The position numbers and the translations under genes were made by a program. From Pseudovirgaria hyperparasitica (taxonomy: Eukaryota): a DNA stretch of 64,000 nucleotides. The notes beneath the pieces were generated by a model. That model was not told the DNA's origin and made no database searches. It saw only the letters and a list, made by a program, of their open reading frames with translations. Every line of letters starts with the position of its first letter. Position 1 is the stretch's first letter. Shown one piece after another: positions 2,966 through 59,251 of the stretch. The stretch lies in the NCBI GenBank assembly GCA_010093815.1, contig ML996589.1; one strand, written 5' to 3'.

Positions 2966-2999
2966 TTTTAAAGTTATAAGTATAAAAGAAAGTACTATA

Positions 3000-9011: not shown

Positions 9012-9212
9012 TAAAATTTAACTAAAAAAGAGACTTAGAAAAATAATTTACTAAGAGAAATAGACATTAAAAATCGGTACTAATTAGTATAGATTAGTAT
9101 AGATTACTAAAGAGATAAAAGAAGTTATTATTAAAGAAAGATAAAATTAAGAAAGCTAAAAGAAAATATAAAGATCTATATAGATCTATATAAACTTATA
9201 CTAATCTATCTA

Positions 9213-9440: not shown

Positions 9441-10996
9441 TTATACTAATCTATCTAGAAGAAGTAAGATTACTTTAAAATTAAAACCGAAAACTAAAAA
9501 TACTAGATAAAAGAAATATATTAGTACTAATTAGTATAGATCTAAACTAATTAAGTTAGAGTAGAAGTAGAAGTACTAATTACCGCGATAGTTATATCTA
9601 ATTCCTTCTACTACTTCTTATTTAGTATAGTATAGAGCTTTATAATATAAGTCTCTAGTCTTTTATTCTAATACTATAAATTCTATATAGTATACTTTAT
9701 AGTAGTAAACTTCTCTATAGAAATCTATAGAGTAATAGAATCTAGAATAGAGAGGGATAGACTAGCACGGATATACTAAGAATTATATAAATTAGTAAAA
9801 AGATTTAATAATTAGTATAGAACTATATATCTTTAGTATAGAAACTTCTAGATTAGAGCTATCTTCCCTAAATTTATAGCTCTTTAGTATATATAAGAAA
9901 GGAACCTTAGCCTTTTTACTAGAACCTTTTCTAGAAATTTTAATATTACTAGTATATAGAAAGAAGTCTAAAGTAGTAGAGATTTTAATACTATTATAGA
10001 GATTAATATATATTAGTAAGAATCTATAATAATTTAAGAAAAATAATATTACCTAGTAATTATAGTAATAATAGCTATAGTAGATTCTAATAAATTCTTA
10101 TAAATTTTATTAGAATTATACTCCTAGGCGTAACTCTTACCTTAGGTATATAGCTTATAGAAAGTCTTCTCTAAGGCGTTATAATTAGTAGTATTATACT
10201 TCTTATTAGTAGAGGTTACTAGAGACCTAGTAGTAATCTATACTAATATAAGTAAATCTACGTAAAGTTCTTCGAACTTACTTAAATACCTATAAGTAAT
10301 AATACTTCTTAGTTATATAAGTACTATATATTATAGATTTAGTACCGCCGTAAGTAATATACGATAGAAAGCGATAACTATAATAATATATAGCTAGATT
10401 ATTAGAGCCCGGCCTAGGTTAGAGTAGATTAATAGCTTTTAATATATTAGTAATATATATAAGATAGGGATTATCTAAAAGCGTCTATTTCTATACTAAT
10501 TACTTTAGAGTATTAAGATTTTAGGAAACTATATTATAATTATTACTAATTTATATAGATTATTATTAATTATTATTATTAGTAGCTAAATATAGTATAA
10601 AAATTAGTAAATTATATAAATTATACTAAATTATAGTAAATCTATATAAATCTATATCTATAAGAATCGGGTAATATATCTAATAATCTAAAAAACTTTA
10701 TAAAGAGTTAAGAAGTTTTTTAAAGAAAGGAATATTTCTAAGAAAAGATTTTAATATAGATAGTACCTAGGCTTATCTAATTATATTACGTAATACGCTA
10801 GGCCTAATTAGATAATCTTACCTATATAAGAATTTAGGATAGATAAAATCTAGTTTATTAGGAAAACACTTATATAAATCTTAGATTAATAAATATTAGT
10901 AAATATTAGAGATAAAGTATAGAGAATAACTAAGGTCTTATAAGATTTAGAATAGAGATATAGAGATAGATAATAATCTAGATTACTAAGGGTAGC

Positions 10997-11136
10997 TGTT
11001 AGGCACGTGCCTACCAGTTAATTATACATGTATGTAGTAGTCGTATATAAGTAGTGTACTCCACCCTTGAAGTAGTAGCTTTAAGATTCGGTCCTTTTGG
11101 TATAGTTGGTTGGTGCGTAGAGCCCGCCTTCTTATA
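10997..11136 (+). mobile_element. Solo LTR of the same family as the TRIM LTRs
   Basis: Starts tgttaggcacg, matches 7860-8011 with a small deletion; 5-bp TSD gtagc at 10992-10996 and 11137-11141. Confidence 0.85.
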
Positions 11137-11466
11137 GTAGCTTCCTAAAGGAAGGGGATAATTATTAGGACTTAGCCTTAGATATAATCTAATCTATATA
11201 TACCTTAGCTAATAGAGTTAGAAGATAGCGTAAAGGATAGTAAATAGTTATATACTAGATAGATTAGTATTCCTTTATATATATACTCTTAGATTTCTAC
11301 TAAAAGGGTTTAGTAGTAATTTATTCTATAATAGAATATACTCTATTATTCTAACTAACTATACTACTATCTAATAATACTATTCTTATAAAGATCTTAA
11401 TATATTAACAAGAGTAATATAATTATTACCTTATTATTCTTTATATTCTAATCTATTATATCTATA

Positions 11467-31500: not shown

Positions 31501-33245
31501 ATTTAGTATAACTACTTAATATATAAGAATTAAGTAGAATATAGTATATAGAACTTAGAGATAGATAAGCTATATTATAGTCTAATATAGCTTATCTATT
31601 TACTATTTATTTATATCTTATTAATACTTACTATAATATCTACTTAATCTTATTAAAGCGCCTTAAATATTCTTATCTATTAGAAAGCTAAAATACTTCT
31701 ATATTATAGACTACTTTAGAAATAAGCCGCTTCTACTTCTTAGAGTATATAGATATATTATACTAGTTTAGAGTATTAGAGCTTTCTCTAGTACTTAGTT
31801 CTATCTATAATTACTAGATCTAAGTTTCTTCTCTTTTCTTCTAGCTTTATAATTAATTTTAGATATATATATATATCTATTAATAGTAGTCTATAGTAAT
31901 TAGTATTATTAGTTATAATTAAGATAGAAGAATCTAGAAGCCGTTAAAGTAACTAGATAGATAAATAGCTAAGCATTTAAATACGGAAGATAGGGACCCA
32001 TACTACACTATGCTAGTGTACCGTATGCCCGCCTAGATTCCAATCATACTTCCGTTACCCCACTACTTACCCGCACGCTACGCCACTTCTATATGCACGC
32101 TAAAGTACCGCACGGCATTTTAGGTCCACTATCACGAGCATCTCCATTCTATGACATGGATACGCATATATCCATATACAAGCCGCAAAGCTACTAACAC
32201 CTATGGCACTTATTTACTAACGTTTGAGTGCTAAGCTACGTAGAGCCTTAGGAACCTAAAGCATGACTATACATACTACCATGACCATGCCCAAGTTTAT
32301 CTATGTGCAGAATCAGGCTTGACATTGCCGGTGGGTACGGGATAGTATAAGTATAAGTATACCCTTAATAGTTTCATGGTTCTAAATGACCATAGCTTGA
32401 CGAGCACGCCACGTACATCTAGAGGACAGGGAACCAGCTGCAAGCCACCATGAGAACATCGTCCAGTTAGACTTCGTCCGGCAATCGCGATCGTGGGAGA
32501 AGTCAGGAATCGAGAATTCTTGTAGAAAGTCCATAATGCAGGCCGGTGAACACGGGAATGCCAGTTGGGGGTAGTTGATTGCGCGAATTTCGGTGAAGGC
32601 ATGTCTCATCAGACAGATGGTCGACCGGAAAGCAGGGCTTCTGTATGGCTTGAGTGATTGCATGTATGCGAAGCTCGTAACGAATGGGACAGGTGTGCAA
32701 TATTTAGATATTCGATTTGCGGACCAAGAGAACCGTTGCCTCGCCTGGTTTTCCTGGCTCCACACCAAGTCCCATTTATTAAGCTACCGTTGGTTGTGAA
32801 ACAGCATAGAGCCCGACAGAACTTGCAGACGGGTAAGGTAACGTTAAGAAGGACCCTGTCAATATATGCCAGCGGGATACTTCGTCTAGGGAGACAACAG
32901 AAGCCTTGTAGGATATCATCCAGTGGAAATGGAGTCCGGATGTCCCCCTTCACCGCAAGTTCGACAACGGCTCGCCAATGGATCTTACTCGAGGTCATGA
33001 GAATGCATGTACTCCCCTGTGATTAAATTCTCAAATCAAACGAAGTTTATAACGAAAAAGAAATACTTCTTGATGTCCTTAGGCTACTGTGCTGCGTGCA
33101 GAGTATACCCGGCCGTACCAGCCGACATTACGGTCGTATCAAGCCCAAATATTGCCCATTTCCGCTCTTCCTCGCACTTTTGCTTCACTCAGATTTAGCC
33201 TATATTACACTGTTCAGAACCCTCAACGAGCGCCATATCAATCCT

Positions 33246-36200
33246 ATGGATAGGTTTAGTCAACACAGGCGGGGAAGAGGATTCGGGAGCGGATTCGGGA
33301 GCGGATTTGGGCGGGGCAATCCAGGGCAAGGCAACAGGGAAAGAAACGAGGCCAGCCTCAGGCCATGTCATTATTTTTCAAAGAATGGCTATTGTAAGTT
33401 TGGCTTATCATGCAAGTTCTTCCATGGTCCGTCAATCGTAGATAGAGATAGGAGACAGAATCATGGAGGACGACCGCCCGGATCTAAGGAGACACCCGAG
33501 CAACAACAGGCCAGAGTGGACTACAATGCGTGGCGCCGATTCATCAAGGTATCACCTACTAGAACTGACGAGAGAACAATGGAACAGCTTTGGAGTGATG
33601 GTCTTGCCATCTTGAATGGCGACAATCTAGAATGGCAGCAAATGTTGCCACGCGATCTGGACAGCGACGACTATCAAGGCAGGGAACATATTAAGGATGT
33701 ACTAGAGCTGCGATCAAGCCCAGGAGAAGAGCACAACTTCGTTCGCATTGCGCGTTCGTTTCTCTCCGTCATCACTCATCGGGCTCTCCTAGACTGCCTC
33801 TCGGTTGATACCGCTGTTGGAGCGCTTTATAATTTCGTGAGTGGCGCGAATGGGAACCGTGCGATTGCATTCTTCCAGCATCTTTCCCAAACGCTAGAAG
33901 AGTCTTATTTAAAATCCGCCGACTCTATCGCAACGATCCAGACTATTCTACAGACCATGCTGGTAGCACTTCGAGAGCTCCTTGGGAGAGAGCCTCGCGC
34001 TAGATTGAACGAAAACATTACATCTTTACTAGATCAAATGGAAGAGACTACCAAGTTAATCGCTAGAGATACACGCGATTTGATCATGCCAATCACCCTA
34101 GGTCAGATCAATGAAATCCGCGCTATTGTTGCACGAGCAAACGGACTTCTTGCACAAGATGATACTAGACAGATGAAAACTATCACCAAGTCAGCATATC
34201 CCCGCAACCTGGTAATGCCACAAGATCGCCATGATAACGACAAGCCTGATATTGCTAATGTCAAGATCTTTCCGACTTCTGAGGAAATTATGAGCGATGC
34301 GATTGACTTTTTACCCTCCACCGATCTCGACCAACCTCACTTCCTTCAAGACAAAGTTGAAAGACATATCGATACATGCTTTCGTCTTCTTCGTCATGAC
34401 ACATTTGGAGAATTGAAATCGGCTTTAGGGTCATTCTTGCATACCGTACAAGGCGATCCGGCTTGTATTAACCATCCAAAGCTTAGTCTCGGGGATATTC
34501 GAGCTTTCCACTACTTGCATGCGTTCATTAGCTATATCTCATTTGATCGTCGGCATGGTCTCGAAATGAATATAACATTCAGACAAATCCCGCAGCTACG
34601 CCAGAAATCAGCGAAAGAGAGACAAAAATGGTGGCAAGACTCAAAAAGACTTGGCGAGGGTGTTCTTCTCTCATTAATCGCAGTTCAAGACGATCAAGTT
34701 CAGCACTTATTCTTCACGGTTAGTAGAAGAGATACGGACACGGGACACGATGGGAGCCTTACAAAGGAAAATGCTCAATGCACCATTACTTTAAAGCTGG
34801 TGGCCACCGATCAGACACAAGTAGCTTTGGCCGTTTCCTTGAGCTGCCAAAAGACACAGGGGATCCTTCTAGAGTTTCCTGGTACCATTCCCGCTACGTT
34901 TGTACCGATTCTCGAGAACCTAAAGAGAATGCAAAAGTTTAGCAGGCTACCTTTCAAAGACTGCATTCTCCCTGACCAAATTGACGACACCCGGAATCGA
35001 AAAGGCGGCAGCACTCTTGACATACTAGCCCCACTTTACGCTCGTCATCCTGGATTTGCTTTCAACTTGAAGTCCATTCTCAAGATAGATGCGGTGGGAA
35101 ACGATGACATCTACGTGCTACCAACATCTTCTCCTAATGACGCAGCTATCATTGACACAGTTGAAGCTCGCACCGCACTAGATCGCGGCCAGAGTCAAGC
35201 CTTGATATCAGCGTTGACGCGAGAATTTGCATTCATCCAAGGCCCGCCTGGTACTGGAAAGTCGTATCTTGGTATTGAGTTGATGAAGGTTTTGATGGAC
35301 TGTAAATCAAGAGTAGAGTTGGGGCCTATCATTGTGGTGTAAGTTGGGGTCTCAAATCTCAAGTGCTTGGCTAACGATAGACAAGGTGCTACACAAATCA
35401 TGCGCTCGATCAGTTTCTTGAGCATTTAATTGACATCGGAGTCAAAAAGACCATTCGTATCGGAGGTCAGAGCCATTCCACTGTTCTGGAAGAGCACAAC
35501 CTTCGAAAGATTTCCCAAAGCGAAGGCAAAACAAGATCGGAAGGTTTCCTCCTTCACAAGTCATACGAGCGTTTAGAGCAAGAGTGTGAGAGAATTAAGA
35601 AGAGCCTAGGGCGCCTTCATGGCACTTTTAGACATGCCAACTGGTCGAATTTGCAATATCACCTCATGTACAGGTACTCAACGATTCATGACCAATTTAG
35701 TCGATTTGACGAAGACGGTTTTGAGCGGGTTGGTAAGCCTCTTTTTGATGCCTGGATTCCTCCTACTAGCAATGATCGCCCAGTCACGGAAAATGGCAAG
35801 ACGGAACCGGCGGCCACCTTGATCAACCACATTTTAGACAAGGCAGCAGCCAATGTCCATTCCTTGGCACAGGAGGAGAGGCAAATGCTGATGCGCTTTT
35901 GGTGTCAAGAGATCCATGATACTGCTCTCGATGATCTTTATGAAAGGTTGAAAATGACAGAGTCCGCGCAAAAGCAACTTGCCGACATCCATGACGAAGT
36001 TGATCGGCGAGTGCTTCAAGCTGCGGACGTCATTGGAATTACGACAATAGGACTAGCGAAAAGGATTTCCACGCTGCAGCGTGTGCGATGCAAGATTGTG
36101 ATCTGTGAGGAAGCTGGAGAAGTCATGGAACCGCACATGATATCTGCGTTGCTTCCGACGGTAAGTCGCTCCCAGAAACAGCACTGTGGCAGTGTAAGCG

Positions 36201-39200
36201 TACTAACGACAACATTTATAGGTTGAGCATCTGATCCAGATCGGAGACCATGAACAACTTCGTCCGCAGATAAACAACTATGGTCTTTCGCTCGAAAGCA
36301 AGCAGGGTGAGTTGTACCAATTAGATCGAAGCCAGTTTGAAAGGCTGTCCGTTGGGCAACCTGGGCGACCTCGGATCCCTGTAGCTCAGCTAAACGTACA
36401 GCGACGTATGCGTCCTGAGATATCGAAGTTGATACGGGAAACCATCTATCCTAGTTTGATCAATCACGACACAACCATCGACCTTCCAGACGTCGTTGGA
36501 ATGCAGAAGAATGTATACTGGCTGGATCATGACCATTTGGAAGAGGGAAAAAACTCCGACATGCACCAAAAGTCTCATTCTAATATTTGGGAGGTGGAAA
36601 TGGTGCACGGATTGATCCGCCACATTGTTCGACAGGGTGTCTACAGAAGCAGCGATATCGCTGTCTTGACACCTTACACTGGACAGTTACAGAAGCTTCG
36701 CTCAGTGATGAGAAACGACTTTGAGATCGTGCTTAGCGACCGAGATCAAGAGGCACTTGATAAGGACGGATTTACCGAAGGCGACGCAAGTCTTCAACAA
36801 GGAGCTGCCGGGCAGCAGTCGTCCTCCTCCAACGCCGTTTTGGAAAAGAAGAAGCTCAGTGATCTCTTACGGATTGCAACTGTGGACAACTTCCAAGGTG
36901 AGGAGGCCAAGGTGATCATTGTCTCTCTTGTCCGGAGCAATAAAGAAAAGAAAGTCGGATTCCTCAGGACGACAAATCGAATCAATGTTCTTCTCAGTCG
37001 AGCCCAGCACGGACTGTACCTGATTGGTAACTCTGATACATATTCAAACGTTGAAATGTGGCAGAAAGTTATCAACATGCTTCGATTAGCTGACGCAGTC
37101 GGAACAACTTTGGGGCTTAGCTGCCCGCGCCATATTGAAACCGAGATCATAGTCCACGAGCCTCATGACTTTCCCAAAGTCAGTCCAGAAGGAGGATGTC
37201 GTCTTGCATGTCTCTGGCGCTTGCCTGGATGTGGCCATATGTGCCAGTCTAGATGTCATTCGGAAAGTATGCACAGTGCATTCTTGTGCGCACAGCCTTG
37301 TCAAAGGCTACTTGAACCATGCGGACATGCTTGCCAGAAGCCGACGTGCGGAGAGAATTGCGGAAGATGTCACATCAAGCTGAATAATGTGCCGCTTCCT
37401 TGCGGGCATTTCAAAGATAATGTACTCTGCTTCCAAGCACAGAATCCTGGTCTACTCTGCTGCTCCATTCTGGTTGAGAAGCTTGTCCCATCCTGCGGAC
37501 ATACCGTAAAAGTGACCTGCTCAATCGACGTGGCGTCGGAAAGATATCGTTGCTCAAACCCATGCGCCTCAACATTACCCTGCGGCCACAACTGTCCGGG
37601 ATCGTGTGGTAGCTGTAATGCCAAGGGCGTTGAAGGCAAAGTGTCGACGTCACACCAGAAATGCACCAAATTGTGTAGCCGTCGATTTGGCACCTGTAAT
37701 CATTCCTGTCAAAAGGCTTGTCATGGAAAAGACTGCGGTCCTTGTCTCTCTCCCTGCGAAGTCCGCTGCCAGCATTCGAAATGCACCCTGCGCTGCCACG
37801 AACCATGTGCGCCATGCATTGAAAGATGCACATGGGAGTGCCAACATCGTGGACGGTGCACCATGTAAGTTTTATGTCTCTGCGAGCTTGTTATCTTCGA
37901 TCAACTGAGCTGATGCTGACCTTTTTCTTTCTTCTCAGGCCGTGCTCTGCACCTTGTAACAGACTGCCCTGTGATCAGCGTTGCTCGAAGAGTCTTCCTT
38001 GTGGCCATCAGTGTCCAGGTATATGTGGTGAAGCATGCCCAACCGACTACTGTCACGCCTGTGGCTCCAAGCCAGATGCCAGAGTTGATCTTCTGGAAAT
38101 GAAAAGCTACAGCGAAATCAAGATCGACGAGACTCCAATCGTGGTTCTCGGATGTGGGCATTTTTTCACAGCAGAGTCGCTGGATGGTCTTGTGGGTATG
38201 AGCGAAGTTTATACTACCGATGTGTTTGGAGACTTCACTGGCCTAGCAGATATCAGCGGCTCTTTAGCGATGAAAGTACCCAAGTGCCCAGACTGCCAAC
38301 AGCCAATCATGCAATACATAACTCAGCGATACAACCGAGTCATCAACAGAGCGGTGATTGATGAAATGTCAAAAAGATTCTTGGTTAATGGTAAGACTGA
38401 GCTCCAAGAGCTGGAAACGAACGTTGAGGATCTTGAGTCAGGCCTCGTGGAGTCGAGGGAAAACATTAAGGACTCTGTAGAAAACTTGACGTCAAAGATT
38501 CGAACCCGATATCATGAATCCAAGAAGCTACAAAGTAAGCTTGAAGATTTCCTCCGGAACGTTGCAGATCGACATCAGCCGGCTCATAAACTCCACGAGG
38601 CCGTTGTCCAGGCTAGTAGGAGCAACAGTACAGACGATCCTGCATCTATTGCTGATGCATTTGGTTCACTGAGTATCCACCGAAACAGCATTGGCCCCGT
38701 CGAGCGAGACCGCAGAGTCACCTTTGGGGGTCGCGTTCTGCAGATGAAGGCGGAGTCCATCATACTAGAAGACAAGTTCCAGATCATAAAGAAGCTTCGA
38801 TCCGGTCCATCCAACGAAGACGCGAAACTCTCCGGCGGAAATCCACAAGATCTTACGAAATCTTTCATGAAAGCTTGCGCATTACTAATAAAGGACTGCG
38901 AGATCGAGAAGCTTCCTAAACTCGCAGTAGAAGCTTCAATCCACTTCGCCACAAACGCACAACTCTACCGCTCATCTCAATTGTCCGGTGAAGATAGAAA
39001 GAAGGCTACCGAGTACGTAGAAGAGGCGAAGGATTTGCTGAAGCAAGCGCATGAACTATGCGAGCAACCCTTTCATAATGCAAATCAACTGAAAACTTGC
39101 GTCGAGGAAAACATCCAGATTCTTGGAAGGGAGTGGTACGAAGAAGTGACTGCCAAAGAAGTTGCCGAAATCAAGAAGGCCATGGTAAGTGGTAGAGGAG

Positions 39201-39428
39201 GCATCGCAACACACTCGGGTCACTGGTACAATTGCGCAAACGGACATCCTGTAAGCATCACAGTTAGCAAATACACAGTGTAGAGGCTAACACCCCAGTT
39301 AGTTTGCTATCGGTGAATGCGGAATGCCGATGCAACTTGCGCGCTGTCCGGAATGCGGCGCGGCTGTTGGAGGATCAAGTCATCAGGCTGTCGAAGGTGT
39401 TACCAGAGCCGCACAAATGGAAGAATAA
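33246..39428 (+). CDS. ZNFX1: ZNFX1-like protein: CCCH finger, UPF1-like SF1 helicase, NF-X1 zinc-finger array, C-terminal RZ finger; introns 35339-35385, 36161-36221, 37865-37938, 39251-39302
   Basis: CHYFSKNGYCKFGLSCKFFH; RHDND; IQGPPGTGKS; CYTNHALDQF; EEAGE; IGDHEQLRP; QRRMRPEI; TVDNFQGEE; RINVLLSRA; many C/H repeats; HWYNCANGHPFAIGECGMPMQLARCPECGAAVGGSSH. Four canonical GT-AG introns restore one frame. Confidence 0.93.
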
Positions 39429-39582: not shown

Positions 39583-40467
39583 TTACATTGCCACTAACGA
39601 CAAGAACCGTGGTCGCCACACTCGTTCGGCCCAATCCATTAGCCAATGCAAGACTGCTACTACCTTCATTGCATCGAAGCAAGACCTCGAGCTCCCGATA
39701 GTAATCTGCTCCCACACGGTCATCTTCTGGTTATTCTTAGAGACGATTAATAAGTGCCAATCATGACCCTGCGCAACAAGAAGCGGGAGAGCAGGCCAGG
39801 GTCCAACCGTAGTGCCCTGAATGAGAGAAAGACGTTTCAGTAGAGCATCCGTCCATATTGCAATCTGTGGTTTACCGTCAGTCCATGATTTCATGGGACT
39901 CTTAGCGTCCACATGGATTGCGATGGGATTGCGACGCGCTCGAGTTGTGTGATTCCAAGACTTGATGGACAAGCCGGGGAGTGGACGAAGGCGGGTCCAG
40001 GCCTGGTTTATGGTCGAGTCGGGCTTGAAAGTGACAACGTAATCAATAGCCCGCCCAGGGAGAATAGACCTGGCGAGCGATCCGGGTTCAATTTTGGCCG
40101 TTTTTCTACTGACGATCAGTATACGATTCCGGCTGTAGAGAGTGCGAACCAACACATTAACAATCTCAAGGGTCCGCGAGTGCTTGCATGTGTCACAGGC
40201 AAGTTTGAGTAGTGGGTGCTGGACCTCAGAATTCCACCAATCCTCAGAAGCACCTGGTCCACGATCATGTTGTCGTGCTTTCTCTACAATACCCAGTATT
40301 TGCGGTGGGGTAGGCATGGTGCCAATCTTACAGCGCTGCTCCAGGTCGGTCGCCCATGAGTATTGGTAACGCATCCTTTCCACGGCCGGCAAAGCAGACA
40401 GTTCATCCATGCTATCGTACCCCAGTATCCCAATGCCGTCGGCGAATCGTTGAATTGGTGTGCGCAT
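39583..40467 (-). CDS. Fungal PD-(D/E)XK nuclease-like protein; N-terminus upstream appears frameshifted or decayed; possible in-frame intron near 40106-40153
   Basis: SEDWWNSEVQHPLL, AIDYV, WNHT, PIAIHVDAKSP, QIAIW, LPLLVAQGHDW pattern characteristic of this fungal family. Confidence 0.65.
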   Translation of the reverse strand: MRTPIQRFADGIGILGYDSMDELSALPAVERMRYQYSWATDLEQRCKIGTMPTPPQILGIVEKARQHDRGPGASEDWWNSEVQHPLLKLACDTCKHSRTLEIVNVLVRTLYSRNRILIVSRKTAKIEPGSLARSILPGRAIDYVVTFKPDSTINQAWTRLRPLPGLSIKSWNHTTRARRNPIAIHVDAKSPMKSWTDGKPQIAIWTDALLKRLSLIQGTTVGPWPALPLLVAQGHDWHLLIVSKNNQKMTVWEQITIGSSRSCFDAMKVVAVLHWLMDWAERVWRPRFLSLVAM

Positions 40468-40959
40468 CAGCGTGACATCTTCCGGCTCCGGCCCATCCCC
40501 ATCCAGATCGTCATCGAAGTTACGGAAAACGACCGGGTTTTCTTCATCCTCGAGTATTTGAATCTGTTTTACGGGGCTAAACGTCCACTTTGCCGTGAAT
40601 GGACGTCATAGGCGTCGGAACTTGCCTCGCTCGAGGGAGTAGGTGGCCTTGAATGTCAACAGGAGTCAGCGATTCTTCACGAATTGACAGCAGATCGCAT
40701 ACAATTCTTGAAGCGACTGGATCTCATCAATCCAGACCTCGATGCTACGGTTCATGAAGCCGATGGCGGTGCTGGGAAAGGCATCTTGACGACAGAACAC
40801 GGTCTGTTTGTTGTTCGTTGTTGTGAGGACTTTGGCGACCGTGATAGCCGAGAATTGCCCGCCGGCGACTAGATTAGATCTAGACTAATTAGCGACAGAG
40901 GCGAGGAAGATGCGACAGACGACGTACATAAGAGAGTAACAGATTCACTCGGAGAGGTA

Positions 40960-48076: not shown

Positions 48077-51000
48077 ACAAGGCCTAAATGCCGGGCCGAC
48101 CTCGGGCGCAGCGTCGAAGGTGGTAAACTTTCTGCTTGTGCTTACTAAGACCCTGTATAGCCGTATCAAGTCTTCAAGCCAGCGAGGTCCACATGTCTCT
48201 CGGATGTCCGCTTGCCATTGGCAATTACTGTTCTTCATACCAACGGCTCCATTGCTGAGACCCATGCTCATTCTGTTCGAAAGATCCCGAGAAGCACTCG
48301 TCCGAGGGCTATAGTATACGATATCATCATACATCTCCCACACGGAGAACACGAGTCTCGACGTGGCTTTTATCCAGCAAGCATCTATCTCACAAGAATG
48401 AGCATCATGTCGTCCAGTGATATCTCTTTGTATGCCAGTGTCCAGGCGTCTTGCGTACTTGTGTCATCGATAAATTCAAATGTCGGAGGACTCGCGCCTC
48501 TGCGAAGAAGCCAGTAAATATATCCTTGGGAAAATATGTCCCACCGTTAAGCTTGCGAAATGTGACGAGGCCATGGTTCTGCACAGCCTCTATACGGTGA
48601 TTAGGAATGTTCGTCATGTACGCGTACAGTCCCACCGAACTTATGATGGTGGTCGTCCGCATGTCTGAGCGGAATTCACGAGCTCCGTGATCTGTTAACA
48701 CTGAGGTCCATTATAACCCAATGGAGGGAGACGCGACTCACCTCTTACCCAATAATCCATCGCGTTCATGCTAACAATACATGCTAACAATCCTCTGATC
48801 AGCATGGTACAGCCTTAGGGGGCCCCAAGTTGTATCTATCATGCTCAACGATACGGAGCCAGGTAACGCTCATGTCAGGTCTCCTCTGAGACGAAGAATA
48901 TACTGATTGCTTTGACTGTGTAAGCGGTGATGATACTGAAGGAGTCAAGTATAATCATCCTCAGGCGGATTGTAGACGTCATTCGACACCTGCGGCTGGT
49001 AAACCATTTCGCCAGCCAAGCTTCGGCATATGGATGGAGCGTGCTGGTAACCTTCTTTTCTAAGCTTCTAAAAGAAATTAGCGTCCTGCAAGATCTCATC
49101 TTAATAGAGGATTTGGTATTTACACGACATATAAGTAATGTCGAAAGTGACGCAAACCGTAAGCATAAAATAAGCAGCTAACCAGCCTCCACTCACCTAG
49201 GCTTTGCAAAATGTCCGCCATTTTCAGTCCTTGAACAGACATGCTATAAAAGAGAATCAAAGACTACGCACGTTAGCTCTAAAATTCGTGGAGTCGTTGC
49301 GACAGGAATGTAATGGTAGTAGTTGGTGGGGATGGTTGGAGTTGGTCGTGTGGTCCTTCGCAGGCGAAACAAAACAAGTGCACTTCTAGGGTCTTGGCAT
49401 GCATTTGATTTTTATGAAATGCATAAGTCCTGTCTACTACCGAACCGTAGCTAACAATTAGACGTAGTTCCTTTCGTGGCGCGTAACATGCGCGATGCAA
49501 TCAAGGATTAGAAGTTAGACAAACGTGCATTGACAATTCAGTCTACGATCTTCACCTATCATTCATTCTCTGCCAGTTGTTCAAGGGTGACTGCTACAGT
49601 CATTTCGCAAGCAGTGATCGCGGTAGAGTGCAAATTTGTTGAAGATACCATGCCTCGACCACGGTCTGGGACAGATTGTAAAATACTTCTAGTAGCCTCA
49701 AGACATTAGGACTCGCCAACAGTTGTCAATGAATCAAAAGATACACGATTCGGTGACGTGAACGAGTGTTCGGCGTCCTCGTCTTACTACTCGTCAGAGT
49801 CGCACTCTCGTAATCAACCTCCATCTACGCAGTCCAAGATCAACCCAAGTGCTCCTCGAAGTCGTCATCCCACCACGTCCATTCAACTATCCCTTTTCAT
49901 ATTAGGCCACCTATGCTTACTCTATACTTCTAATAGTTCCTCTTTCTTACATCGTCCCCTGCAAGACCATTCGAGAGAACGCTATCTAGACAGGCGATGA
50001 ATCTCTTAAGATCTCACCGCTGACGTACAAGTTACAACGAGAGTTACAGTTCAAGAGAAAGGCAATATCTAGCATGTCAATGCCCCTTGGTCTTGACGAG
50101 AACAAGAGAGAAGAATAGGCCACTGCTAGGACGGTTGTTCCCTATGCATTTGGTCATGAATGAACTCTACTTGCTCCTGACGGCCAAAACACCACCACCG
50201 TTGCAGTTACACCGCTCTCACTTGATGAGTCTGAGTTAGAAGAATTGGGAGGTATACCGCCGCTTGTCACATCCTGCTGTGAGTTACGCGTTTCTACTGT
50301 ACAATTTCCCCTAGCTTATAGGCGACAGGACAGCTTGTGAATAACTTCCATATGGTACGATGTGCGAAAGGGAAATCCGACAGGGCTCCAACCTTGGGCA
50401 TTCATATGGTTGGTACTATGCATTTTACGAACTCCTTCAATATACACCTCGTCTAGGAAATGACGGATCCTCGACCCGACATCGATAGCACGTGGGTATT
50501 TCGATCCTGCTTGGAATTGTACGTCGATGTCTTTAGCCTTTTCTTCTTCTGCTTTAAGTTTATGGTATTCGTGCCACGGCCAATCGCTATGTACAAGAAG
50601 TCATTATCAAGTATCAACTACCGTTAAAATCACTTGTTCCAGGGAGAGCCAGCGACTGCGGTATCAAGCACAGTCTCTGTCTTGTGGAGAACGACATCAT
50701 TATGATGTCGATTTTACTGATATCCATGAATTGGACTGCTGGTCGCCCTCCTAACAATGTCCATGTTGTTGGGCTTGCCTTTGGATACGCTCTTCTTCGG
50801 CTCCTTTATTGGTACACCATCTTCTGCGGGATCCTGAAACAAGGACAACCTATAAACTATATCAAAGTGTGAACTCAGTCGTATCACCGTCGGCACAAGT
50901 CATCCGCCATCGGTTGTGTTTAGGATGCCGATTGCGCATATAAAGTCGATTGTCGGCTGCTTGAGCTTCGTCGCTATGTATTTCCAACGGATGAGATAGT

Positions 51001-52536
51001 AAATAGTCGTGTTATATTGTCAGACTACTCAATCACTCGTGAGGTCGGATGAAATGCGAAATATTGTGAGATGTATTGTTGTATGGCCTATACTTGGGCA
51101 CTAACTACCCTAAGTCTTAACGAGTGGTGTAACAGCCACACGTATGCTTAAGAAGGGGGACCTATTACTTCTTGTTCTGATATTCTCGTAAGTCAACATA
51201 TAGTCTATGCGATAGAGTTAAACCCTCGTGTAGATCTTGTACGGATTCAGGCCATAGCTATATATATACAAAGTGGTATTCCCTAATCGAATGCACAAGT
51301 CGCTAGCGGTGGCAGATGTCACCATAGAAGAATACTGCGAAATACAATGGCCTCCAAGCAAGGCATCGTTGAATGTATATCCTACGATTCGTCTAGAAGA
51401 ATACATTATACTTGACCGGGCATCCGACTTCGAAGACGATGGCGAAAGAGACGGTGGTAATCCTTTCAACCTCACGAGGGCAGGTCACAAATTCGCCTCG
51501 GGTTCTACCCTAGGAGCATCTGAATCGAGCTTTACCACGGAACTATAGGTGTAACATGATACCATAGATTCGAGAATGACGAACCACTCTGCGTCTCCAT
51601 CCCAAACGGAGCTTACTACGAAACTAAAGGAGCAGACCAACACTAGCATATCCATGATGCCAGAGCGGGTCATCATCTTACAGTGTTTGACTAAGTCATC
51701 ATCTAACCTAAGAGTGACCACGATGCTAGAGCAGGTCAACAACTTGTAGTATGGACTGAAACCCCACGTAAGATTCTAAGTTTAGATTGGGCAGTCTTTC
51801 AAGCCTAGCAAAGGAATCATGATTTGCTGGTTAATAGACTGAATTCTTTACCGAAGAGGACCAAAAGAGGAGCCATAGTTTTGGTACTGCTTTCAAAATT
51901 CCAGGACCAATCAGCCCTGGGACTACAACTATATGGAGAGATCGCTGAGGCTAGGGCTGCTGAAGCAGAAATTCTTATCCAGCTGCAACGTCCCTCAACC
52001 ATAGAAGTGCCGTATTCTCGAGAGGTTCACCGGAAGCTTGAATACCTAAGTCGCAAGTTCATTGAAGTCCCGATGGAGGTCTATTTGACTTGGAACCATT
52101 AGAGGACGGTAATGATTGCCACTCAGAGCCACCGGCTCTCATAAACTAACAGAATAGCTGCGATTAAGAGTATCAAAGCACAAATGCCTAGAACTCTGGC
52201 GCTATGAAGATCAATCTTCCTATCTATACTATTGTCCCTAACACCACTTATGGCTATGCGAATTACCTATTGTATGGACTACCATACCTCAATGGATCTC
52301 TCTGGTACGGCCCTACTCATCGCCTTTCGATTTCAACCTCCCAACTCGGCACTGATAGATATGTCATTGTTTAGTTGCTATAGACTAACGTCACAATCCT
52401 TTGTCAAGAGTATATCTCTCAATAAAACCTTGTGGGGACTGTTCTCCGAAGTACGCGCCCAGCCACTGTCTTTTTAGTATGTAATCTGTGTGAGTTGCAA
52501 CTTTTCGAGGCCGCCATAGTACAGATCTCTGTGAGT

Positions 52537-54415
52537 TTAGTAATACCGCGAGAAGACTACTGGCAGCGCTACTGTCACCAAAGTCATCAAGACGTCGCCG
52601 CACGCCAGGAAGTTCGAAAACGTGCCCTTGTCGTACAAGACGCTCCCAGCCTTTCTCGAGATCCCCTTAATCTACGTCATTATCGACCGCTCGACGTCGT
52701 ACTTTAGCACCCTCACGCCCCTCCTAGTGCTCACCCTCTGCGCGTTAATGTTGGGGTTGATTGCGATGTACGACTACTTATCGAGCTCTATCTTATATAG
52801 CTCCTCGAACCTCCCTACCCCTACCGTCACGATTAACTTCCTCTCGTCTACTAGCCTGGGCCTCGGCCCGCTCTTACACTACCTTCCTTATCTTAATCGA
52901 CATCTGCGTGACATCGTATAAGATCGTCGACAAGTTGGTGTTCCCTAAAGCGCTTATGAATGCCCTTATAACTATCTTAGGCATGTGGGGTTTCTTCTTA
53001 CCCATCCTCTTTATAAGGTCCTTAAGTAATACGGAGTCGTTCTCGAAGGGGACCACGGTTATCTCGTAAATGATGTTATCCACCATGCTCTTAGGGGCTT
53101 TATAGCACGTGACCTTGTCCTTTAAGTTAGTCGCGACGAGAGGGCGGTTCTTACATAATAAGTTAACCGTGGGCTGCTTTAACCTAAGCGTCTTATAGGG
53201 CTTCACGCAGACTATGCCGTCGAATTATAACCTGTAGCTGAACGTTTTGAGGACCTCCGTGATCGAGCTCTAGAATTTTATCGTCCTTATCTCCGGAACG
53301 CAAGTCTCGAGCCCATGCTCCCCGAGGTACTACCTAGCCTTATTCTTAACGCGCCCGTTCCCAGCGAGCATGTGGATGTACATGGGCATCCTATTAAGTA
53401 TCATCTCTACGACCAAGACGTCGGGGGTATTCGTAATCTGCATGAATAGTAAGTAGGTGCTCTTCATCCTGCACGTGACTATGATAAGGTTAGTATCGGA
53501 GGGTGATTATATAGCCGCCGTGGTAGTAGAACACATACATCTTTATGCCGTCCACCTTATGTATAAAGTACCCCTCGTGCCCATCGAGATTGGAGACGTC
53601 CACTATATTGTGGTCTAAGTTCCTCGCCTCGTTTATAGAGTCACGGTTGATCTACTTAGTTATCTTCGTGTGGCTCCCTAGGAAGGAGACGCTGTAACTC
53701 GTGATCACCCTTAAGTTGTTCGTTAAGTAGTCCTTCTCGAACTCTATCTCGCACGCGTAGCTGGTCCCTAGGTGGCCCTTATACTCCGTCGCGTTCGAGT
53801 GCGCAGTCGCCGAGCGCATGTTAATCTTAAGGGACTTCTAAGTCATACTCGTATAGGTCTACACCTTATAGATCGTCCCCTCGAAGTCGAACTCTAATAA
53901 GTTAGCTAGATGAAGCTAGGCATAAACTTAATCTTAGTCACGGGCACCTTCACGGTCTTCTCCCTAGCATTCCTGACCCTTACCTACACGTTCGTGTTAT
54001 ATGGCTCGCCCTACTAGAGTGTGTAGGACTGCTCCTTGTAGTTCGTGACTACCACAGCCCTACCGAGCTTCTTCTTCTCCACGTTCTTCCACACCGCTTT
54101 AGCCATCCCGCTGCTAAACCTCATCTCGATCTTTTCGTAAGGGTCGTCCGACATGGAGGTGATGTTGCACGCCCTCGTCGGCTCCACAGGCCCGTCAATC
54201 AAGCGCGCCTTGAACGAGTTCTTGTTGTATAGCCCGGTGTCGTTCATCTTCGTTATCACCCTCCTTAATGAGTCCGACGGGCCTCTGCACTTACATATTA
54301 TCATCTCGGCCGGTTCATCCGCCCTAATCATCCTCATGTGCCTGATCTCGGCCTTCTCGGGGTCCTTGCTCAATATGCCGAGCTAGTAGATGTTGGGTCG
54401 GTTGGTGGCCTCCAT
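52537..54415 (-). pseudogene. Trifunctional mRNA capping enzyme (TTM RNA triphosphatase + guanylyltransferase + cap methyltransferase), RIP stops and ~3 frameshifts
   Basis: Manual translation: EKIEMRF (~54116-54136), YACEIEFE (~53736-53760), HKVDG (~53547-53561), DVLVVEM, MYIHMLAGNG, FDGIV (~53210-53224), LRLKQPTVN (~53162-53188), LIVTVGVGR and YIAINP (~52750-52840). Confidence 0.8.
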
Positions 54416-56222
54416 CGTGTACTAGTCTTATTATCGTACCGTTCTTCTAGATGTAGTGGTAGTAGTTAATAGGCTACTTCTAGTCGACCACGGTCGTGTA
54501 TGTAGACCAGTGTCGTATTGCTAGCGTGTGTCTACGAGCTACCCCTGACGCTAACTATTAACCTCGAGAACTACCAGAGCAGCTTAAAGACAGTCTTCCG
54601 CTACTAGAACTACGACCACTACAAGATGTGCCATATTAGCTATATTGAGTGCCTCGCGTGCAAGTAGAACATCTCGTCGAAGGTCATCTTGTGTAAGCAC
54701 GCGCAGCCCGGGAAGGTATACATTACGAACGACGAGCTGCGGTCGACCGACGTAGTCAAGTAGGTAGGTAAGAGCGCGAAGTGGTCGCTAGACCTACACG
54801 ACTACATGGACGTCATCACGGTCTATAACTACCAGCCGGCCTGCCCGAAGACCGAGTAGGACTATACGTGGGACGAGGACGTCGAACTAACGTAGTTCTT
54901 CTCGAAGTTCTAGGTCTGGCGCAACGAAGGGGTCTACAACACGACATACATGATCGAAAAATATAGCGCCATCTAGTACATGAGGAGGTTCGCATGCCTC
55001 GGTTGCTTTATAACGCCTAGAAGACCTTCTACCACTCCCCTACTAGACCATGGAGAATGGGACGCCCTTTACGGCGAGGGAGGTCCTGGTCTGAGGCGGG
55101 GTGGCCAAGTTCGTTAGGTCGGTACACAAGTACGTGTGGACCAACATCAACGTGGAGAACCTGAATGTGTACAAGGCGGACATTAACGACGCGAAGTCCC
55201 CAGTCCCGTGCAAGTAACACGACTACTGTCCCGGGCACTTGTGCTACGACGCGGACTTGGACAGCTACATGATACCATACGGGTTTGCCAGAGGCAATGA
55301 GGACACATATTCGGACAGTAGCTTGAAGAACCAGGCCGTCATGAGGTATGAGATCACGAACAGAGAGTTGGCGAACCACTACTACTCGAAGCTTGCGACT
55401 AAGCGCGGGATCTTAAGGAAGCAGAACAACGGCACCAGGCCCGTGAACAGCTTCAGGCTCGTCGCGTCGCCCCCCCTAGCGGTGTCGTTCAGGAATGGGG
55501 TGCCGTGGAAGTTGCTCGACCGCGGCTACGTGGAGGTCTCAAGGAGGGTCTTGTCGAAGGCGAACTTCATGCACCTCTCGCCCGACGGGTACTGCTCCGT
55601 GAGGAAGATCGAGGTGGGGGAGACGATCATCGTGGGGAGATGCCCATCGCAGGGTAAGAACAGCACAGTGCCGCTTAAGGTGAAGTTGGCGCCGGAAGGA
55701 AGGGGTGGACTCGATCGCGATCCCGTGGGAGCTCTGTAGACTAACGAACGCGGACTTCGACGGGGACGAGGTGTGGGGGTTGGTGCCTATGACCGTGGCG
55801 GGATCCGAGGAGGTGGAGAAGAGGTGGTTCGAGATGTGGGAGTCGAACGAGGAGCAGACCGTCTTCAACAACGCATACGAGATGGGGGTCAGGAGCAACG
55901 TCAGCAGCGAGGTGGACCCGGCCATGTTGACGACCATGACGGTCAGGGAGATGTCCGCGCACAAGGGCGGGAAGAAGTACGACAGCATGATGCTCAAGCC
56001 TACGTCGTGGTCGCAAATGTATAAGGTCATGATGTCCAAGACCTACTGGCAGTCGTCCGTGACCAGGGGCGAGAACGGCATCTTCAACGTGTATATGGGT
56101 AGGAGCTCGTTGGCGGACCCCTACGGGTACATGAGAACGGGCATTATAATGGGGTGCTGCCTCAACGTCAACGACGACAGGGTAGGGATCAACTCTTACC
56201 AGATTCTCAAGGTCCCGAAGGC
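52540..56222. mobile_element. Endogenised fragment of a cytoplasmic DNA virus or virus-like element (capping enzyme + ORF X + RNAP subunit)
   Basis: Intronless, tightly packed, strongly C/G-ending codons unlike flanks; virus-type enzyme architecture; both ends appear truncated. Confidence 0.75.
54451..55040 (+). pseudogene. ORF X: Cys-containing hypothetical protein of the same element, RIP-disrupted
   Basis: Reading VYELPLTLTINLENYQ...IECLACK*NISSKVILCKH...WDEDVEL...FACLGC; in-frame stops are TAG; same codon bias as neighbours. Confidence 0.55.
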
Positions 56223-56256
56223 ATTGAACGAAAAACAGTCATGTAGCGTGCCATAA
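55050..56256 (+). pseudogene. Divergent, compact Rpb1/beta'-like DNA-directed RNA polymerase subunit; frameshift ~55705, 3' truncated ~56222
   Basis: CPGH (55227-55238), KRGILRKQNNGTRPVNSFRLVASP (region C-like), GETIIVGRCPS (cf. NRQPS), NADFDGDE (55747-55770). Confidence 0.85.
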
Positions 56257-57229
56257 TGGCGAACCTGGAGTTGTGCGATACCGTACGGCGAAGTGCTATG
56301 AATCTATTGGTGAAAGTAAGACTGAGAAAGAGATGATACACCGGAATGGCACTTAAAGATGAATTCAGATTCGATTAAGCGAGGACAACAGGAGAGTCAG
56401 GCGATAAGAGATGATATCGAAATGCGACTGGAGTGCATGCGAGCAAACAAGAGACAAAAATATCTATGAGGCGTCATAGAACAAGTTGCTAAGCCAGTTT
56501 CGACGACCGTTAGAAGCAAGCCTTCATGACTAGGGGATCATGAGCGATGTTAATCAATCTCTTTCGGTCGTAATCTTCCATCAATAATAAAACATCTCTT
56601 TTAAGTTAAGACTGGCAACGTCGAGCCTCGCATATTACAGGTAGATTATCGTAGAGAAAACAATTCGATCACGCATAGACTTTAGAACCCTTATTCCAAA
56701 GCTTTTAAGCACCGAGGTATGGAAAGAGATAAACTAACTTGGACATGCTAAACCAATACTAATAGAACCTTTTCCAGTAGCCTCGTCGAATATCAAAACA
56801 AATGAAGGGGTATAGGATAACCCTGGCACTCGCTACGATTCGTCCCCCCACCGCATAAGCCCAGCCTTAGAGTTCGAAGCTAAAGTTACTTCTTAAGATA
56901 ATCTTAACGGGGATACTTCTACTCGAAAATGCGCTGGTCCTAAACGTGACATCGTCGAGAGTGGGGCTGAAGTCTTCAAGGCAGAAGCAGTTAGCAGCCA
57001 CATAAACGACACTGGTATTTCCATAGCCGCTTTGATATTAGCTCTGAAATACAGCGAAGGCCTAATGATTGAGTTTGTCGACAAACCTAGATTACTACAC
57101 AGTCTTATGGAGACGATCGAACCTCGCATTCTTAACCTTATTCGGCTTTTCAACGCCCCTGAATTACAGAGGTGGCAAGCTTAAGTAACAGAGGCGGCGC
57201 GCTTAAATAAGCGGCTATAACAAATCGAA

Positions 57230-57767
57230 TTGCGAACCTCCAGCTTCTTCGAGCATTGTTTCGACACTAGAATTAGGATTAACCCGGCTAGGAGAGAGAG
57301 AGGACGTTTATACGCAGATCACGCGATAGTGCTCACAGTCCTACCCAACCAGGCTTTGAAGAACCGCGCTACAAATGCCAGAATCACACGCCTCTATATC
57401 ACCTTCTTTCACGTGGTAGCTCTGCTTGCTTATCTATTGTCGTTCTTTCTGTATGTGATGGTGTTTGATTTCGCTGTGCTCGTTGCGATATCTCTCGTCA
57501 TCAGCCTGTTCTTGCACTGGGTCTGTTGTTGGTACATGGATGATGCGTAGAGAAGCAAACAACATACAGTGGTATGGGTCCAGAACTTGGTTCGGTGGTC
57601 GCAAGTTATTAGGAGGTACAATGCGAGTACTTCGTCTTTGGTACGTGATTCCACCGATTAGACCATTACATGAGGGCGAGGAAGAGCAGTTAGTGACTGA
57701 CCGAGTGTGTATGAGGGACAGTAACACGTCGATGATTACCACTACTCCACTGTTGTATTCCTCATGA
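57230..57767 (+). pseudogene. Possible membrane protein fragment
   Basis: Two hydrophobic helices in ORF 57230-57550; interrupted; no family recognised. Confidence 0.25.
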
Positions 57768-58213
57768 GCCCTGTCCTTGTGATTATGTGTTTTTCGCGAG
57801 ATTTTCGGATCTAGAAACAGATACGGGCATCAGGGCCATTGGCGACTGAGGACAAAAACGAGCGGCGATTGGTAAGAGCTTCAGCCATAACAACAGAGTA
57901 ATCATCCTCTGATGCCTGTGCAGACTATACATCTTACGCTTGAGCTCGCGTAACGCGACTATATGTGTAAACACTTGGTCTCGATGGTATAGTAGGATGC
58001 CAATTGTTCCTGTTGTTTCCTTGCTCTTGAGCCACGTTTCTTGCTACCTACGTCGCGCGGGATAATGTAAGTCGTGCTTCTAGTGCAGTCGAATGCGTCA
58101 GAGACGGCATAATAAGACTTCGGATGCTCACTACATGTAATACGATGTGTACCTCTGCTAAGCGCATTGTCTTCATAACCTTTTCTACTGACTGTTTGGT
58201 GCTAATGATCGAA

Positions 58214-59251
58214 CTAGTGACAACAACTTCGGCTGGGTGGTGATCGGATCAGCCTCGCCATTGCGACGAGCAAAGTCGTGGCGTGCGAGATTCGAACAAC
58301 CGCGTAGTATCTGTGTGCTCGTCGTGGTCGTAGTGTATAACGGCGCGATGCTAAGAGGGAAGACGATAGCCTTAACAGCGAGTGAATGGCCTGCACTGTT
58401 CCGTGCTGTGTCCACCATTTACCGCATGCTCTGCCCGTCCATATCTCTTGGTGGTCCTTGACCGTCCACGCTATGCGGAGGTCGTTTCCTCTTCCCTTCC
58501 CATGGGGGCGATAGTCTTCATTATCCGAGTCGTCCCCCTCATCCCAATCCGACAAGCCCTGCCCACTATTAACATTGCCTCTCGGCCTCTGAAATAGCAC
58601 TAGAGCCTGCCTGAGGCATTCCAGGCCTTCACGGGTGACGGCCTCGACCTCCTCCCTTGTCGAGAACCATGGAGTCATCCTCACCGAGGAAGGTTCTTCG
58701 GATAAGTCAGCCATGGACATGATATCTGAACCACACAAGGAGGATTGCTCTGACGATGCATTCTCCATCTTCACGCTTAGAGACGCATTGCGGCGATCAG
58801 GACAACCAAGACTCGTCGCATCTTTCCTGGCTTTAGGCCCTGCTGACCTTGCCAGGATCAAGCGATGACCAGTTTCAATACGCTGCGCAGTCTTGTCAGT
58901 GTCAAGCCCAATGGGTTCTGTTGCAGTACATACTTTGTGGGGTGCAATACTATGGTCTACCGTGCTGCCTTCCTGCTGCGTCCTGAGTCCACCTCTCATC
59001 GTTGACGTGAGTGTACCCCATGAGGTAGTAACAGCCACACCTCCTAGTGTGACTTGAGAGGTAGAGGCGTTTGCTGAGACACGCTGGGGACCGGGACACA
59101 GGAATGTTCCAAGTCTCCAAGACCTACTTCGAGTGTTGTACGCACGCTGCGAACAAACTCCCAGAAGCTGTGCTTGCCAAGTCCAAAATAGACGTCGTAC
59201 TGCGCGGTCAACCCTGACTTGATATCTAACAAGACAAATTAGCACGACCAA
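58214..59251 (-). CDS. Possible hypothetical protein
   Basis: 345-codon open frame with non-ATG start; no recognised motif. Confidence 0.25.
   Translation of the reverse strand: MVVLICLVRYQVRVDRAVRRLFWTWQAQLLGVCSQRAYNTRSRSWRLGTFLCPGPQRVSANASTSQVTLGGVAVTTSWGTLTSTMRGGLRTQQEGSTVDHSIAPHKVCTATEPIGLDTDKTAQRIETGHRLILARSAGPKARKDATSLGCPDRRNASLSVKMENASSEQSSLCGSDIMSMADLSEEPSSVRMTPWFSTREEVEAVTREGLECLRQALVLFQRPRGNVNSGQGLSDWDEGDDSDNEDYRPHGKGRGNDLRIAWTVKDHQEIWTGRACGKWWTQHGTVQAIHSLLRLSSSLLASRRYTLRPRRAHRYYAVVRISHATTLLVAMARLIRSPPSRSCCH

Follow-up and report, generated by a model that had tools for sequence, protein, structure and literature searches.

A dead capping-enzyme and RNA polymerase gene pair in an ascomycete contig, probably captured from a family of GC-rich DNA elements of filamentous fungi

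What is a virus-like gene pair, one gene for an mRNA capping enzyme and one for an RNA polymerase (RNAP) subunit, doing in the DNA of a filamentous fungus, and where did it come from? This question is raised by positions 52540..56222 of a 64,000-nucleotide stretch of Pseudovirgaria hyperparasitica DNA (GenBank assembly GCA_010093815.1, contig ML996589.1), referred to here as a whole as the window. The original prediction, made from the letters alone, placed there an intronless, gene-dense block with C/G-ending codons, in which a capping enzyme gene (-) stands head-to-head with an unassigned open reading frame (ORF X) and an RNAP gene with the motif NADFDGD (+); it proposed an autonomous transcription module and a relic of an undescribed Pezizomycotina DNA virus or virus-like element. 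Our results indicate, with a probability of roughly 80%, that the block entered an ascomycete chromosome as one contiguous piece of a GC-rich DNA element and is now dead. The coordinates, the C/G-ending codons and NADFDGD on the plus strand hold, at levels well above chance; the genes, however, are not intact, as both are pseudogenes with stops and frameshifts. The module is dead in the window, and thus not autonomous there. The block comprises:

52549..54379, minus strand: pseudogene of a predicted three-domain mRNA capping enzyme (triphosphatase, guanylyltransferase and N7 methyltransferase, ~730 amino acids, aa), from profile searches with hmmsearch and the fold of its relatives
54380..55049, plus strand: decayed spacer between the divergent genes (the former ORF X), from the phase of GC content at third codon positions (GC3), its stops and the lack of a homologue
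55050..56256, plus strand: pseudogene of an Rpb1/beta'-like largest RNAP subunit (~600-aa protein), from profile hmmsearch, tblastn and a tree
55747..55767, plus strand: NADFDGD motif (catalytic metal binding in the double-psi beta-barrel), intact in the relic

Reading 52000-57000 of the window in six frames yields only short broken frames, one of which carries TNADFDGDEVW. Codon-phase GC periodicity rises near 52400 and falls near 56300, thus setting the younger of two inserts at ~52400-56300, and GC3 is 0.68-0.88 in the frames aligned to family profiles. With a profile of five intact ~600-aa relatives, the polymerase relic is matched in two adjoining frames at 55050-55703 (E 1.8e-75) and 55693-56226 (E 3.2e-75), spanning profile positions 10-388 of 607 (to residue 421 by tblastn), with about the last third missing. 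It contains in-frame stops at 55092 (TGA) and 55215 (TAA) and one frameshift at ~55693-55705, terminates at a stop at 56254, and is 47-53% identical to the intact relatives P0001/P0002 by tblastn. When the NADFDGD fragment was searched against a large protein collection, 7 of 198 candidates were returned as relatives, five of them 598-608 aa long and 43-53% identical, with one shorter match annotated as Xylaria telfairii; an exhaustive search with the Rpb1-like profile returned 479 representatives at E<=0.001, including 185 at E<=1e-10. Residues D252, D254 and D256 are invariant across 33 members of the family, and Pfam RNA_pol_Rpb1_2 matches the intact relatives at E 1.6e-8. The window fragments themselves gave little to standard searches: Pfam on 12 of them produced a sub-threshold Rpb1_2 match only (E 0.066) and none for the capping gene, a PDB sequence search with a window fragment returned chance-level matches only, matches to PHROGs were weak, and blastn of the window DNA against bacterial plasmids found no match.

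Phylogenetically, a quick maximum-likelihood tree of 21 rows, with sparse cellular sampling, places the window copy inside the element family rather than within fungal RPB1-type clades, as sister to the clade with the Xylaria telfairii protein (Shimodaira-Hasegawa-like approximate likelihood ratio test, SH-aLRT, 99). Against cellular and archaeal largest subunits, the family profile scores no better than E 2e-7 to 1e-5. A structural model of the Rpb1-like protein, built from a 33-sequence alignment (predicted local distance difference test, pLDDT, 81), was matched to the largest subunits of human Pol I (Z 16.1, 453 aligned residues), vaccinia Rpo147 (Z 15.2, 517), Pol II (Z 15.2, 438) and African swine fever virus (ASFV; Z 13.1, 498), and its best viral matches were Pithovirus, Marseillevirus and poxvirus subunits. 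The alignments cover whole largest subunits, from ~residue 40 through the C-terminus, and the modelled ~600-aa protein is accordingly predicted to be a complete but shrunken beta'/Rpb1, not a fragment. A wider superfamily of ~600-aa Rpb1-like proteins (P0099, P0215, P0218, P0127 and others) mostly carries NLDFDGDEVH and lies on 16-28 kb contigs; its distant members include proteins of the chytrid Clydaea vesicula and of Rhizopus arrhizus, the latter on a ~17.5 kb contig that occurs 12 times. These may correspond to virus-like elements of Mucoromycota described in 2026, or to something else.

The capping gene was recognized with a profile of 27 intact ~730-aa relatives, which covers positions 13-623 of 728 in four colinear pieces, the last ~105 residues being undetected. 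The relic bears 12 in-frame stops (10 TAG, 2 TAA) and 3 frameshifts, near 53912, 53500 and 52840, and several motifs remain readable in it:

54379-53912, minus strand: profile piece 1, E 3e-25
53912-53499, minus strand: profile piece 2, E 3.5e-35
53503-52835, minus strand: profile piece 3, E 1.6e-51
52851-52549, minus strand: profile piece 4, E 1.4e-28
54136-54119, minus strand: E-x-E-x-R motif
53750-53736, minus strand: E-x-E motif
53558-53547, minus strand: KxDG motif
53188-53165, minus strand: motif V
52824-52801, minus strand: glycine motif of the S-adenosylmethionine (SAM) site

Residues E105, E107, R109, E232, E234, K296, D298, G299, G543 and G545 are invariant in 27/27 capping sequences; the two glutamate-rich strands, the KxDG lysine and the SAM glycine motif are established catalytic motifs of such enzymes. 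At the sequence level the capping profile matched no capping enzyme in PDB, vaccinia D1 included, and Pfam on the 27 members returned no relevant family, so that function was identified only by fold search. This evidence comes from an intact relative, P0015, and not from the broken window copy: the AlphaFold model of P0015 (27-sequence alignment, pLDDT 83) matched full-length vaccinia D1 in PDB by Foldseek (E 5e-16), with its individual domains also matching guanylyltransferases, tunnel triphosphatases and N7 methyltransferases; in BFVD it matched the capping enzymes of Marseillevirus, Pithovirus and ASFV (NP868R) at ~1e-22. On these models the ~730-aa family, with 46 clusters of relatives, is predicted to be a capping enzyme of the poxvirus/ASFV type, with triphosphatase, guanylyltransferase and N7 methyltransferase in one chain and in that order, and the proposed fusion of the three activities is right for the family.

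Another piece of the same gene family lies outside the block:

50366..50971, minus strand: second, older capping-gene fragment, profile positions 409-624 (hmmsearch E 1.5e-17, tblastn 1.6e-8)

This fragment has 7 in-frame stops and has lost the GC3 signature, and blastn finds no DNA similarity between the two capping fragments of the window. It is an older, separate relic, and its position 1.6 kb away therefore means either at least two hits on the locus or an early rearrangement of the first insert. Its 3' part (50366-50491) is overlapped in antisense by a spliced contig of sequencing run X3 (49732-50491, joint 50278/50329, +).

The arrangement of the two genes was described correctly, and so was their lack of introns: the frame changes join adjacent profile positions, and are therefore indels, not introns. 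ORF X, in turn, does not stand as a gene. The spacer keeps a coding-like GC3 phase (0.70-0.85) over 54500-55040, yet both candidate frames are full of stops, and tblastn with 25 small ORFs of the intact loci found no homologue. It also shows the strongest dinucleotide bias of the type left by repeat-induced point mutation (RIP) in the block, with a TpA/ApT ratio of 2.16, next to 1.35 in the capping gene and 0.88 in the polymerase gene, versus 0.2-0.47 in intact elements. Both window genes are dead, and the relic is inert and without function in this genome.

The search for intact syntenic relatives, suggested with the original prediction, was successful. Three metagenome loci, L040, L041 and L042, were analyzed for gene content over about half of the respective contigs. 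The Rpb1-like gene of L041 and L042 is divergent from a 726-727-aa capping gene, and the order of capping gene (-), short spacer and Rpb1-like gene (+) is identical in both loci and in the window; the 726-aa protein matches 54379-52549 (-) of the window colinearly, and therefore the window keeps the element's own gene order. Further on, both loci encode an Rpb2-like subunit of 785-810 aa (Pfam RNA_pol_Rpb2_6/7, 8e-10), as a gene separate from the Rpb1-like one, and a B-family DNA polymerase (PolB) of 787-793 aa (PF00136 DNA_pol_B rather than PF03175, 1e-29 and 2e-31). A protein-primed PolB was among the genes that the original prediction suggested looking for; a PolB is there, but its profile best matches archaeal PolB and Pol alpha/delta in PDB (5e-34 to 1e-30), and from sequence it appears to be of the canonical B-family type rather than the protein-primed one. 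With the closest IMG/VR viruses it shares only 24-28% identity, and its family comprises 46 clusters, one of which (P0266) also has a precomputed PF03175 match. The intact loci are GC-rich (59.6-61.1% GC), with GC3 of 0.90-0.98.

Element loci also encode many small cysteine-rich proteins, and a NADAR domain protein is found at 44-592 (-) of L040 and 3327-3842 (+) of L041 (Pfam 5e-48 and 8e-31); as a guess, it may reverse nucleic-acid ADP-ribosylation as a counter-defence. Among the relatives, NADAR is fused to the DNA polymerase in P0264, P0272 and P0277, and to the capping enzyme in P0048. The three loci are strongly depleted in TpA (TpA/ApT 0.25-0.47), the reverse of the AT-rich yeast plasmids. 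The rare sequence AAAAC, often as (C/G)AAAACG(G), lies 14-112 nt upstream of a predicted start on the same strand in 5/7 of its occurrences in L041 (within 3215-11888), 4/7 in L040 (within 3048-4554) and, with the gene list used, 1/11 in L042, and may be the promoter core of the element's polymerase, or merely A-richer intergenic DNA. One 14-mer of the window (52610-52623, coding sequence there) recurs at an intergenic site in L040, which is roughly what chance predicts for a search space of this size.

The size of the source element can be approached through its contigs. The longest contig is <=35,131 bp in 43/43 full-length capping clusters and <=33,710 bp in 41/46 PolB clusters, such that 84/89 full-length capping and PolB clusters lie on contigs <=35 kb, and the same contig sizes recur across the capping, PolB and Rpb1-like families. 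Named sources in the close family are all Pezizomycotina, namely Xylaria, Fusarium, Beauveria, Hortaea, Saxophila, Circinaria, Hirsutella, Penicillium, Monosporascus, Conoideocrella and Stachybotrys; lineage was checked for three of these genera, and the other sources are metagenomes. Fragments of element genes were also found in Stachybotrys and Xylaria telfairii, and contigs of 23-27 kb occur in public assemblies of Fusarium albosuccineum, Hortaea werneckii and Circinaria calcarea. The literature searched, which left most subscription journals and supplementary files outside, holds no description of the element family, and pattern scans of IMG/VR, the first of which was saturated by the universal NADFDGD pattern, returned no family member. 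Thus, a family of 22-35 kb elements of filamentous fungi is apparently widespread and undescribed.

How does this family compare with known systems? As in Nucleocytoviricota (vaccinia D1, ASFV NP868R), a tunnel triphosphatase, a guanylyltransferase and an N7 methyltransferase are predicted in one polypeptide in the same order, and the capping gene sits next to the element's own multisubunit-type RNAP subunits and a B-family DNA polymerase. In contrast to those viruses, the RNAP subunits, of 600 and ~800 aa, have about half the usual length, no match to D1 or to Pfam capping families was obtained by sequence, and the contig halves examined showed neither a major capsid protein nor A32, D5 or VLTF3; this last result comes from Pfam on 33 ORFs of L040-L043, in about half of each contig and with the small ORFs unfolded. 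Contigs are 22-35 kb versus >100 kb, the available text of 10.1101/2024.02.29.582850 putting a Nucleocytoviricota genome at ~100 kb or more. The same source describes mriyaviruses as giant-virus relatives of 35-45 kb with an HUH endonuclease and, in the part available, with neither a DNA polymerase nor RNAP subunits; a mriyavirus identity was rejected, as both polymerases are present in the family. In fungi, endogenous large-DNA-virus inserts ('fundsalphavirus', 'fundsbetavirus' and a 1.5-Mb Rhizophagus region) resemble our block in having polymerase genes fossilised with stops and frameshifts, but those inserts are, according to the main text of PMC7017919, Pithovirus-like or asfarvirus-like, with full-size RPB1/RPB2, D5 and a SNF2 helicase. 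Baculoviruses and nudiviruses likewise combine small beta-like and beta'-like subunits with a capping subunit (LEF-8, LEF-9 and LEF-4), and fold matches were obtained to LEF-4 (~1e-14) and LEF-9 (5e-5), ranked below the giant-virus ones; however, the matched LEF-4 proteins have 451-477 residues versus ~730 aa here, and those viruses infect arthropods. LEF-4 is not known to carry a methyltransferase domain.

The elements also resemble those of the pGKL2 type in being small fungal DNAs with a minimal RNAP and poxvirus-like capping, pieces of which are captured in nuclei. pGKL2-type elements and their Mucoromycota/Zoopagomycota relatives have a fused beta-beta' protein plus a small subunit, a protein-primed polymerase, lengths of 8-53 kb and terminal repeats. 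The fusion of the beta and beta' regions in one protein of yeast plasmids is stated in the accessible text of PMC6211774, and their A/T content of >75% in that of PMC4431711. Here, in contrast, Rpb1-like and Rpb2-like genes are separate, the polymerase appears canonical, and GC is ~60% with GC3 >0.9; the family does not show the three defining features of yeast killer/helper elements that were tested (fused subunit, protein-primed polymerase as judged from sequence, A/T richness). In the published view, as given in part of PMC13348850, neither free elements nor their housekeeping genes are found in Pezizomycotina.

At the locus itself, several observations favor a resident insert. Positions 49500-58500 lie within one contig in sequencing runs X1 and X2, and the block is flanked by spliced host-type genes on the same contig: on either side of it, contigs from a second study (library kind unstated) show joints of 50-66 nt with GT..AG ends (50278/50329, 57516/57568 and 57635/57702). 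Strongly RIP-type DNA at 1-18 kb and a nearby PDDEXK_12 gene of a family most frequent in Ascomycota also agree with an ascomycete host. The second-study contigs, from runs X3 and X4, cover 49732-50491 and 56471-58500 but not 50704-56422, which has no bearing on whether the block is silent. No direct or inverted repeats or target duplications were found around the block, and relics of PolB, Rpb2-like, NADAR and the conserved upstream ORF were not found in the 64 kb with the weak two-sequence profiles available from L041 and L042.

Some points speak against the block being a dead piece of a small free element. The junctions have no DNA support independent of one sample, from which both spanning runs derive and which may be the source of this assembly. 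As for decay, tryptophan or glutamine is the commonest family residue at only ~3-4/12 of the capping-gene stops, several others falling at E, Y, F or P columns; RIP as the only cause of the stops was rejected given these mixed residues, and it is therefore a contributor, not the whole story. The nearest relative of the window copy is only ~52% identical at the protein level, and therefore the donor lineage is itself unsampled. With regard to the source family, the 22-35 kb contigs could in principle be mere assembly islands, L041 ends within a gene and L042 ends 5 bp past one, and therefore their contig ends are unproven as genome ends. Moreover, 5/46 PolB clusters come from named fungi with longer contigs, from 48 kb up to 5.5 Mb, one full-length 793-aa PolB gene being on a 101-kb Xylaria venustula contig, and integrated copies with intact genes therefore exist. 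Finally, no capsid, packaging ATPase, primase-helicase, integrase or terminal repeats came to light in the contig halves examined, and the intact element may be a virus, a plasmid or a transposon.

Several of these points would fit a source family of large chromosomal mobile elements, self-replicating transposons or integrating proviruses, with the window holding a remnant of transposition. The longer PolB contigs (Xylaria venustula, Monosporascus, Hirsutella rhossiliensis, Conoideocrella, Penicillium canescens), the gene-bound ends of L041 and L042, and the recurrence of decayed copies (two in the window and others in L043, Stachybotrys and Xylaria telfairii) all agree with such an origin. 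However, no integrase or transposase was found in the Pfam-scanned ORFs of L040-L043, the window block has neither terminal repeats nor target duplications, the 84/89 clusters confined to short contigs are difficult to reconcile with it, and it is not evident why a nuclear transposon should need to encode an RNA polymerase and a capping enzyme; we consider this origin unlikely. A fragment of an endogenised giant virus, as known from early-diverging fungi, is very improbable. By structure, the capping enzyme is closest to those of giant viruses and poxviruses, the Rpb1-like model has its top viral matches in Pithovirus, Marseillevirus and poxvirus subunits, and PMC7017919 (main text) reports Pithovirus-like and asfarvirus-like insertions from fungi; yet the 600-aa subunit is about half as long as the 1272-1423-residue largest-subunit chains of vaccinia and ASFV, the contigs measure 22-35 kb, the IMG/VR scans returned no member, PolB is only distantly similar to viral ones (24-28%), and the main text of PMC7017919 mentions neither Ascomycota nor capping.

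Still less credit is given to a cytoplasmic killer/helper plasmid of the yeast type that was copied into the nucleus. The functional set, an own RNA polymerase and a poxvirus-like capping enzyme, is the same (parts of PMC6211774 and PMC13348850), and plasmid-derived toxin clusters are reported in Pezizomycotina nuclei (PMC13348850, in part), whereas separate subunits, a canonical-type polymerase and 59-61% GC stand here in place of a fused subunit, protein priming and >75% A/T; besides, the 150 best relatives found with the Rpb1-like profile include a cellular RPA1 but no protein of ~970 aa. The origin of both spanning runs from one, possibly the source, sample would allow for a contaminant or misassembly, but pseudogenisation with RIP-type bias fits long residence in this genome, and host-like spliced genes lie on both sides in the same contig. 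Decayed cellular paralogues do not agree with family-profile matches of cellular subunits at E 1e-5 to 1e-7 only, and an identity with cellular RPB1/RPA1/RPC1 or Cet1/Ceg1/Abd1 was rejected considering that weak match, the lack of a PDB capping match by sequence and the place of the window copy in the element clade. Contamination, misassembly or cellular paralogy can hardly be credited at all.

Returning to capture from a GC-rich element, a divergent capping/Rpb1-like gene pair would have entered an ascomycete chromosome, presumably by illegitimate recombination, and point mutations with a RIP-like bias would then have ruined the insert, RIP probably being the main mutagen. In the intact element, the B-family polymerase (~790 aa) is predicted to replicate the DNA, and a miniature two-subunit polymerase (Rpb2-like, ~790-810 aa, and Rpb1-like, ~600 aa) to transcribe it. 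Judging from the modelled domains, the capping enzyme would act co-transcriptionally, converting the 5' triphosphate to a diphosphate, adding GMP via the KxDG lysine and methylating at N7. Such a gene set frees the element from nuclear Pol II and nuclear capping, and we therefore infer replication and transcription of its own; its independence from nuclear Pol II would be like that of poxviruses and yeast plasmids. Most likely, as its gene content suggests, the intact element resides outside the nucleus, as a virus or as a capsid-less, plasmid-like replicon.

We would give even odds that the relic leads to a new high-rank lineage, either double-stranded DNA viruses or capsid-less virus-like replicons of filamentous ascomycetes, which would be the first such agents of Pezizomycotina with their own polymerase, a miniature two-subunit RNAP and a three-function capping enzyme. 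Because its architecture is intermediate (separate shrunken subunits, a giant-virus-type capping enzyme and a canonical polymerase), it is a possible missing link between giant viruses and killer plasmids. A 2026 preprint states that fungi have yielded no isolate of a class I DNA virus, and in another published account dsDNA viruses appear to be unreported from Ascomycota and Basidiomycota. The relic leads to dozens of intact contigs of near-identical size with a self-sufficient set for replication, transcription and capping, carried by plant-pathogen, insect-pathogen, rock-inhabiting and lichen fungi. If these are episomes, a DNA branch would be added to fungal virology, and the origins of yeast killer-plasmid and giant-virus transcription would become testable through an intermediate form. 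A two-subunit polymerase of ~1400 aa with a one-chain capping enzyme is, furthermore, a compact expression system of practical interest. In the genome of the window itself, the relic is an inert marker of past contact.

A further decayed copy was observed in L043, a 10-kb metagenome contig (53% GC), where a frameshifted Rpb1-like relic lies at 5116-6584 and, after it, what remains of a small cysteine-rich gene that also comes after the Rpb1-like gene in L040; an 827-aa ORF at 1261-3744 of this contig is intact and has no Pfam match. Elsewhere in the window, positions 1-18000 are AT-rich (GC 0.22-0.42), with extreme RIP-type indices (TpA/ApT ~1.65, (CpA+TpG)/(ApC+GpT) ~0.22), and include a run of N at 219-927. 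A PDDEXK_12 nuclease gene lies at 39583-40602 (-), with similar clusters commonest in Ascomycota. Next to it, at 33027-39283 (+), four consecutive long open frames with CCCH zinc finger, AAA_11 and AAA_12 helicase domains appear to be parts of one large helicase gene of the Upf1/NFX1 type, interrupted by introns or by changes of frame.

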